Source: a virus (taxonomy: Duplodnaviria; Heunggongvirae; Uroviricota; Caudoviricetes). From it: DNA of 30,914 nucleotides. The notes beneath the pieces are model-generated. The model was not told where the DNA came from. It saw only the letters and a program-made list of their open reading frames with translations, and did no database searches. The position numbers and the translations under genes are program-made. Shown one piece after another: positions 17,020 through 17,269 of the stretch. The stretch's first letter is position 1. Each line of letters opens with the position of its first letter. The stretch lies in IMG/VR virus record IMGVR_UViG_2537562231_000009, positions 1 to 30,914 of that record. One strand, 5' to 3'.

Positions 17020-17095
17020 GGCCCTTTAGCTCAGTGGTGAGAGCGAGCGACTCATAATCGCCAGGTCGCTGGTTCAAATCCAGCAAGGGCCACCA
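17020..17095 (+). tRNA. tRNA with anticodon CAT (tRNA-Ile2 lysidine type, or Met); ileZ-like
   Basis: Cloverleaf folded by eye: acceptor GGCCCTT/AAGGGCC, anticodon loop cgaCTCATAAtcg, T-loop GGTTCAAATCC, encoded CCA. Confidence 0.85.
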
Positions 17096-17102
17096 TCACA
17101 TA

Positions 17103-17179
17103 CCGCCATTAGCTCATCGGGATAGAGCGTCAGCCTTCGAAGCTGGTTGCGCGGGGTTCGAGTCCTCGATGGCGGTCCA
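17103..17179 (+). tRNA. tRNA-Arg (anticodon TCG); argN-like
   Basis: Acceptor CCGCCAT/ATGGCGG, anticodon loop CTTCGAA, T-arm CGGGG-TTCGAGT-CCTCG, encoded CCA. Confidence 0.8.
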
Positions 17180-17192
17180 TTATCTGCACACT

Positions 17193-17269
17193 GTGTTGTT
17201 AGCTCAGCCGGACAGAGCAATTGCCTTCTAAGCAATCGGTCAGTGGTTAGACTCCACTACAACGCGCCA
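17193..17269 (+). tRNA. tRNA-Arg (anticodon TCT, reads AGA/AGG); argO-like
   Basis: Acceptor GTGTTGT/ACAACGC, anticodon loop CTTCTAA, T-arm AGTGG-TTAGACT-CCACT, encoded CCA. Confidence 0.8.

Follow-up and report, generated by a model that had tools for sequence, protein, structure and literature searches.

The window, that is, the whole stretch of 30,914 nucleotides (30.9 kb) analysed here, is a lambdoid prophage of E. coli. With a 24.9-kb query, the best match was the prophage of EPEC E110019 (96% identity over 92%), together with a prophage of Z1323HEC0393. The layout is based on ORFs, on the annotation of these two genomes, on Rfam and on Pfam. The genes cIII, cI, cro, cII, O, P, ren and the nin genes precede Q (12157-12582), which is followed by hok/sok (12613-12937; Rfam places sok at 12613-12787 and hok at 12782-12937), by a 7-bp tandem repeat (13121-13358), by hsdM (13104/13449-15410, the first of the two starts being the ATG of an ORF that includes the repeat) and by an hsdS-like specificity gene (15470-16564, plus strand; GC 36%; Pfam Methylase_S, E=1.3e-19). 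Three tRNA genes lie at 17020-17269. Downstream of them are a gene of the TerB family (terB, 17439-17870, plus strand; GC 51%; Pfam TerB, E=2.2e-16), which occupies the stx position of phage 933W, an adjoining DUF3927 gene, two sRNA genes, the nanS-p esterase gene (18450-20303), the lysis genes and the genes for terminase, capsid and portal. The preliminary description had the tRNAs flanked by AT-rich cargo. This is true of the upstream side, where hsdM and hsdS have a GC content of 36-44%, but not of the downstream side, where terB, DUF3927 (54%) and nanS-p (55%) span 51-55%.

Some regulatory RNA elements of the prophage were also recognized. A cIII thermoregulator RNA element of lambda (495-553, minus strand; 88.5 bits) overlaps the start of cIII (376-540, minus strand). 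A c4-type antisense immunity region at 9637-9835, made up of the c4-a1b1 targets (9637-9689), isrK (9650-9724) and the C4 antisense RNA (9751-9835), is located upstream of two short ORFs (9889-10565) and a KilAC/Roi antirepressor gene. The two prophage sRNA genes between DUF3927 and nanS-p stand back to back (18039-18302): STnc100 (18039-18240, plus strand; 150 bits) and AgvB, an anti-GcvB sRNA that is the same as the Rfam consensus (18241-18302, minus strand; 96.5 bits).

The tRNA genes are preceded by a late leader of the 933W type. Its promoter pR' (TTTACA-16-TATCAT, 16572-16599, plus strand) has 10 of 12 consensus matches and aligns with positions 20666-20693 of the 933W record AF125520; its function is assigned by homology. 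Coordinate mapping from 933W places the expected qut a few bases downstream of pR', before tR'. The terminator scan revealed a tR'-equivalent intrinsic terminator at 16630-16655 (plus strand; aligned with 933W 20726-20748), and a second one, GCCAGCC...GGCTGGC with a T run, was read from the sequence at 16829-16857 (plus strand), being identical to 933W 20929-20957. Between this second terminator and the putative tRNA promoter pT, 114 nt (16866-16979, plus strand) remain of the C-terminal part of a gene for a site-specific DNA methyltransferase. This pseudogene is conserved in 933W and related prophages, and for the two closest genomes PGAP lists it as an incomplete methyltransferase; no Pfam match was found in its 50-aa ORF. 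The promoter pT itself (TTGCAG-17-TATTAT, 16982-17010, plus strand), which is followed by the GC-rich CCTGCGCCC, corresponds to AF125520 21082-21110 with one mismatch. It has only 8 of 12 consensus positions and is hence absent from the promoter scan list. One more intrinsic terminator, found by the scan, follows the tRNA cluster (17282-17307, plus strand; aligned with 933W 21385-21408). The region from pR' to pT is about 95% identical to that of 933W, and about 450 nt upstream of the tRNAs can be aligned. The homology resumes exactly after hsdS and ends about 30 bases past the post-tRNA terminator, where the cargo differs. The same order, q, pR', qut, tR'1, tR'2, tRNA promoter, tRNA-Ile, tRNA-Arg, tRNA-Arg and stx2, has been described (PMC2858043).

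This alignment indicates that the hok/sok toxin-antitoxin locus and the hsdM-hsdS pair form an inserted cassette, which separates Q from the 933W-type pR'-qut-tR' region (16572-16655). Since hok and hsdMS are upstream of the 933W-type pR', they fall outside the late transcription unit that holds the tRNAs. A promoter-like site immediately after Q (12579-12606) was considered as a candidate for pR' and rejected, the 933W-type pR' being that at 16572-16599. The site after Q is more likely the hok promoter, as it ends 7 nt upstream of the start of the Rfam match to hok mRNA/sok.

The ileZ-argN-argO trio

In the 30.9-kb window ARAGORN called three tRNA genes and no others. They are on the plus strand: ileZ for tRNA-Ile2 with the anticodon CAU (17020-17095), argN for tRNA-Arg with UCG (17103-17179) and argO for tRNA-Arg with UCU (17193-17269). 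The Rfam model RF00005, with a gathering score of 29, scores them at 72.5 bits (E=3e-14), 53.6 bits (E=4.8e-9) and 60.3 bits (E=6.9e-11), respectively, far above chance. All three genes encode the 3' CCA and can be drawn as cloverleaves when read from the sequence; folding by free energy gave this shape for argO alone. PGAP/RefSeq annotates tRNA-Ile, tRNA-Arg and tRNA-Arg, with no pseudogene flag, in the two closest genomes, and in Z1323HEC0393 argN and argO are identical to those of the window, ileZ differing by one base. The scores, together with the PGAP annotation in close genomes, rule out chance matches or pseudo-tRNAs. The positions and the three anticodons that the preliminary description had read from the sequence are thus exactly those called by ARAGORN, with intact genes behind them.

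The anticodon of ileZ alone led ARAGORN to label it as a Met tRNA. An elongator or initiator tRNA-Met is ruled out by the acceptor-stem determinants and by the similarity to ileX. Alignment with ileX and metT revealed that ileZ has C4:G69 and C5:G68, which are the determinants required by E. coli TilS (PMC1635315). Moreover, ileZ is 89% identical to K-12 ileX vs. 68% to metT/metU, the change relative to ileX at 6:67 is compensatory, and the anticodon arms are alike except for the 27:43 pair. The assignment to the lysidine-type Ile2 made in the preliminary description therefore agrees with these data, and the reading of AUA by ileZ through a predicted lysidine at position 34 is well supported at the sequence level. 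In its CAU anticodon (lysidine) and its decoding ileZ resembles the chromosomal ileX and ileY.

Both argN (AUCGGGAUA) and argO (AGCCGGACA) have A20 in the D loop, after G18 and G19, and C35. We take A20 and C35 to be identity elements for E. coli ArgRS, so both tRNAs are predicted substrates of this enzyme. Alignment with three Arg tRNAs of K-12 (argU, argQ and argX) gave identities of 58-71% and showed different anticodon stems; for argN the identity does not exceed 68%. To our knowledge, K-12 has no tRNA-Arg with UCG, only the ACG, CCG, UCU and CCU species, and its CGA codons are read by the inosine tRNA (ACG). Thus argN would bring in an anticodon that base-pairs with CGA without wobble and, by the wobble rules, it probably reads CGG too. 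The C1:G72 pair and the U73 discriminator of argN are unusual.

According to its UCU anticodon, argO is predicted to read AGA and, weakly, AGG. Its anticodon and anticodon loop (CUUCUAA) are the same as those of the chromosomal argU, yet the two are only 66% identical; position 37 of argU carries t6A. The argO of the window is a variant allele with six differences from that of 933W, at positions 2, 37, 50, 56, 59 and 64. It has U2 (a U:G pair), A37 in place of G37 in 933W, C59, and a compensatory swap of C50:G64 to G50:C64. The T loop reads UUAGACU, with A56, as compared to UUCGAAU in 933W, and the conserved elbow pair G19:C56 is lacking in this gene, while C56 is retained in ileZ and argN. 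C56 is near-universal in tRNA, where it is the partner of G19. The Rfam score of the window allele is 7.8 bits lower than that of the 933W allele (60.3 vs. 68.1 bits), and the A56 allele may work less well. The exact window allele occurs in 71 E. coli records, with up to 565 more within 5% of it, vs. 317 records for the 933W allele. One could also think of the A56/A37 gene as a distinct tRNA-Arg(UCU) variant instead of a decaying copy, in which the elbow and A37 change processing, modification or tRNA-nuclease sensitivity, so that prophages would keep two functional argO classes; we regard this as highly improbable.

The trio is the known ileZ-argN-argO module, annotated in 933W in 1999, and it is not new. 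AF125520 annotates ileZ (AUA), argN, argO, the putative pT, two upstream terminators and one downstream, pR' and qut, and ARAGORN finds in 933W the same three anticodons in the same order. Identical bases amount to 76 of 76 in ileZ (100%), 74 of 77 in argN (96%) and 71 of 77 in argO (92%). Order, strand, pT, terminators, methylase remnant and pR' region are shared and the spacers are similar; the Q proteins are 70% identical, and in both phages the trio follows Q, pR', qut and tR' and precedes the moron site, which in turn is followed by nanS-p and the lysis genes. The differences are that the window has no stxA/stxB downstream of the tRNAs, its moron site being filled by terB and DUF3927, that it carries the hok/sok and hsdM-hsdS cassette between Q and pR', and that its ileZ-argN spacer is 2 bp shorter. 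A 2-bp deletion between these two genes has also been reported for clade 8 O157:H7 (PMC2858043). When the 2 kb around the tRNAs served as the query, 933W covered 61% of it, and a gap split this match into two parts. The same 2 kb are matched by 386 phage records, mostly of Stx-converting phages, and the same cluster is found in VT2-Sakai, Min27, the PA phages and many non-Stx lambdoid prophages of E. coli. Among 5,426 complete genomes of E. coli, 2,367 (~44%) have genes like argO, in up to 11 places per genome. A search of open-access papers for ileZ, argN and argO by name returned nothing. The trio differs from chromosomal rare-codon tRNAs in its location on a prophage, with these multiple places per genome, and in that argN, as far as we know, has no K-12 counterpart.

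Codon use in the prophage, its host and lambda

Codons were tabulated for 42 ORFs of the window (8,089 codons) in five classes. The K-12 baseline comprised 11 core genes (6,161 codons) which are mostly well expressed, so that its values are lower than the genome-wide average: ATA 1.1, AGA 0.3, AGG 0.3, CGA 1.9 and CGG 1.8 per 1000. The corresponding values for all genes of the window are 11.1, 10.1, 6.1, 7.4 and 9.3 per 1000. These five codons are rare in the host (0.3-1.9 per 1000 in the 11 core genes), as the preliminary description had it for ATA, AGA, AGG and CGA, and they are enriched across the whole prophage, even allowing for the low baseline. For all genes of lambda the values are ATA 8.8, AGA 9.6, AGG 4.9, CGA 7.0 and CGG 10.5 per 1000, and the pattern over the gene classes is the same as in the window, with AGA and CGA in early genes, CGG in late genes and ATA in rex and the b region. 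No tRNA genes were found in lambda. Since lambda has near-equal rare-codon use, the trio is dispensable for a lambdoid life cycle with such codons, and any benefit from it is quantitative.

ATA, CGA and CGG are most frequent in different parts of the prophage. The accessory ORFs of the early-left region (613-4494), about 12.5-16 kb from the tRNAs, have the most ATA (31.5 per 1000), the early/nin genes the most CGA (13.0 per 1000, with 9 of these codons in ninG) and the late genes the most CGG (15.3 per 1000). When the 31 genes with 90 codons or more are compared, the use of ATA and AGA declines with rising GC (Spearman rho -0.58 and -0.46, respectively) and that of CGG increases (+0.56); CGA shows no significant trend in this set. 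The expectation that the codons read by the trio would be enriched in low-GC cargo is therefore borne out in part. ATA and AGA do rise as GC falls, and hsdS, in which these two codons had been pointed out before, is rich in target codons: 8 ATA, 4 AGA, 4 AGG and 2 CGA in 364 codons (49.5 per 1000). The hok gene reaches 78 per 1000. The same value is found in 933W for stxA2, just downstream of the tRNAs (15 ATA, 6 AGA, 2 AGG and 2 CGA in 319 codons); stxB2 of this phage has no target codons.

The share of the flanking cargo is not raised, however. Taken together, hok, hsdM, hsdS, terB, DUF3927 and nanS-p account for 23% of the codons of the window and for 20% of its ATA, 24% of its AGA and AGG and 4% of its CGA and CGG; 91% of the demand for CGA and CGG is in backbone genes. 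In Fisher tests the upstream cargo (hok, hsdM and hsdS) does not differ from the early backbone (odds ratio 0.92, p=0.71), its odds ratio against the late genes is 1.50 (p=0.052), and the downstream cargo (terB, DUF3927 and nanS-p) is depleted relative to the early backbone (odds ratio 0.47, p=0.004). CGA and CGG are both missing from the downstream cargo, whose three genes comprise 815 codons, and terB has one target codon in 143 (7 per 1000). Both the Fisher tests and the demand shares thus fail to reveal a cargo-specific enrichment in the flanking genes. The suggestion that the tRNAs may support the cargo is therefore upheld only in part, as a relation specific to the cargo does not fit with these counts.

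Possible roles of the trio

We consider it likely that the trio provides a generic codon supplementation whose clients are spread over the whole prophage and are not the adjacent cargo specifically. Codon compensation is the standard explanation of phage tRNAs (PMC10264068 and PMC7946995, both of which cite Bailly-Bechet 2007). The tRNA genes of virulent phages such as T4, T5 and others likewise match codons that the phage uses more than its host; the phage of the window differs from these in being temperate, in having three tRNAs only and in carrying them within its late leader, beside a moron site. We propose the following course of events. In the lysogen, too, the three genes are probably transcribed, starting from a promoter of their own, the weak sigma-70 promoter pT. 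After induction, Q-modified polymerase starting from pR', 420 nt upstream, would read through the two terminators and add to this transcription. Host processing enzymes would cut the transcript to give three mature tRNAs. Host TilS would then convert C34 of ileZ to lysidine, so that the tRNA could be charged with Ile by IleRS and read AUA, and host ArgRS would charge argN, for CGA and probably CGG, and argO, for AGA and weakly AGG. The added supply would relieve the stalling of ribosomes at codons whose frequency is 4 to 30 times higher in the prophage than in the host core genes, with a possible benefit to the phage or host. The presumed clients are ATA and AGA/AGG codons in AT-rich accessory and early genes, CGA in early/nin genes and CGG in late structural genes. 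Codon supplementation as an account of the trio is weakened by the lack of tRNA genes in lambda, by the 8/12 match of pT, by A56 in argO and by C1:G72 and U73 in argN.

A stricter form of the same idea is that the tRNAs are kept mainly to express the adjoining AT-rich acquired cargo, hsdM and hsdS here and stx in Stx phages. The target codons of hsdS (8 ATA and 8 AGA/AGG among them), hok and stxA2, as well as the rise of ATA and AGA use with falling gene GC, speak in its favour, and a separate pT would allow expression in the lysogen, when the cargo is active. Nevertheless, the demand shares and odds ratios given above do not single out the cargo, terB is poor in target codons, argN has no client downstream because CGA and CGG are missing there, stxB2 has no target codons, hsdMS is outside the pR' unit, and the same trio is kept with stx1, stx2, terB or other cargo. 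Such a dedicated role appears unlikely to us. In the window it is the whole lambdoid genome, not the adjacent cargo, that creates the demand for the trio (for CGA and CGG, the backbone genes), and lambda shows the same codon use with no tRNA genes. This argues against treating prophage tRNAs as markers or helpers of neighbouring morons. In general, the present analysis re-identifies a cluster annotated since 1999 and adds little to it, the useful part being this correction concerning the cargo.

Two further explanations do without codon supply. One of them sees the phage tRNAs as substitutes for host tRNAs lost to cleavage by anticodon nucleases or other tRNases in infection or induction. Colicin D acts on tRNA-Arg; two of the three tRNAs of the trio are Arg tRNAs with limited identity to argU, argQ and argX and with other anticodon stems, and position 37, in the anticodon loop, varies between argO alleles. 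A role of this kind has been hypothesized for phage tRNAs generally (PMC10264068), and P2 Old cleaves several tRNAs, including those for Arg, during P2-lambda interference (PMC12445682). On the other hand, the anticodons of the trio make up the exact rare-codon set predicted by codon compensation, the anticodon loop of the window argO is that of host argU, and ileZ is close to ileX, with the same anticodon arm apart from 27:43. Nor do we know of any tRNase that targets Ile2. Taken together, this makes an escape from host tRNases very unlikely. The other explanation denies the trio a translational role and regards it as a homology anchor for moron swaps, or as an RNA-processing or termination buffer between pR' and the downstream genes. 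This would fit with the end of the 933W homology about 30 bases past the tRNA terminator, where terB-DUF3927 replaces stx, and its resumption after hsdS, with flanks that are as conserved as the tRNAs in the comparison with 933W, argO being the most diverged piece, and with the absence of tRNA genes from lambda. A mere passenger would not be expected to keep cloverleaf features and the tested identity elements in all three genes, to show compensatory stem changes (6:67 in ileZ vs. ileX and 50:64 in argO vs. 933W), to escape a PGAP pseudogene flag in the two closest genomes or to carry a non-random set of anticodons, and we hold this explanation to be scarcely probable. Generic codon supplementation is therefore the explanation that we prefer.

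The heptanucleotide repeat and hsdM

The more unusual features of the stretch, the A56 argO allele and a heptanucleotide repeat read into hsdM, both lie outside the tRNA finding. The repeat consists of 34 perfect tandem copies of the 7-bp unit GACCAGC (13121-13358) between hok and the hsdM core. The ORF that begins at the ATG at 13104 runs in frame through the repeat, which is translated as repeated TSDQRPA, into the N6_Mtase protein. In E110019 the array is longer, with 65 copies, and in Z1323HEC0393 it reaches 89. Division by 3 leaves a remainder of 1 for 34 and of 2 for both 65 and 89, so the arrays of E110019 and Z1323HEC0393 are in a different frame. In these two genomes PGAP puts the hsdM start downstream of the repeat. 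A search for the GACCAGC repeat returned irrelevant primer matches only, and no hsdR was seen among the ORFs of the window. Residues 116-172 of the HsdM-like protein, upstream of the methylase domain, give a weak sub-threshold Pfam match to VRR_NUC (E=1e-3; 19.6 bits vs. a cut-off of 23.8) that may be due to chance. The array resembles a phase-variable repeat, here associated with a type I methylase-specificity pair.
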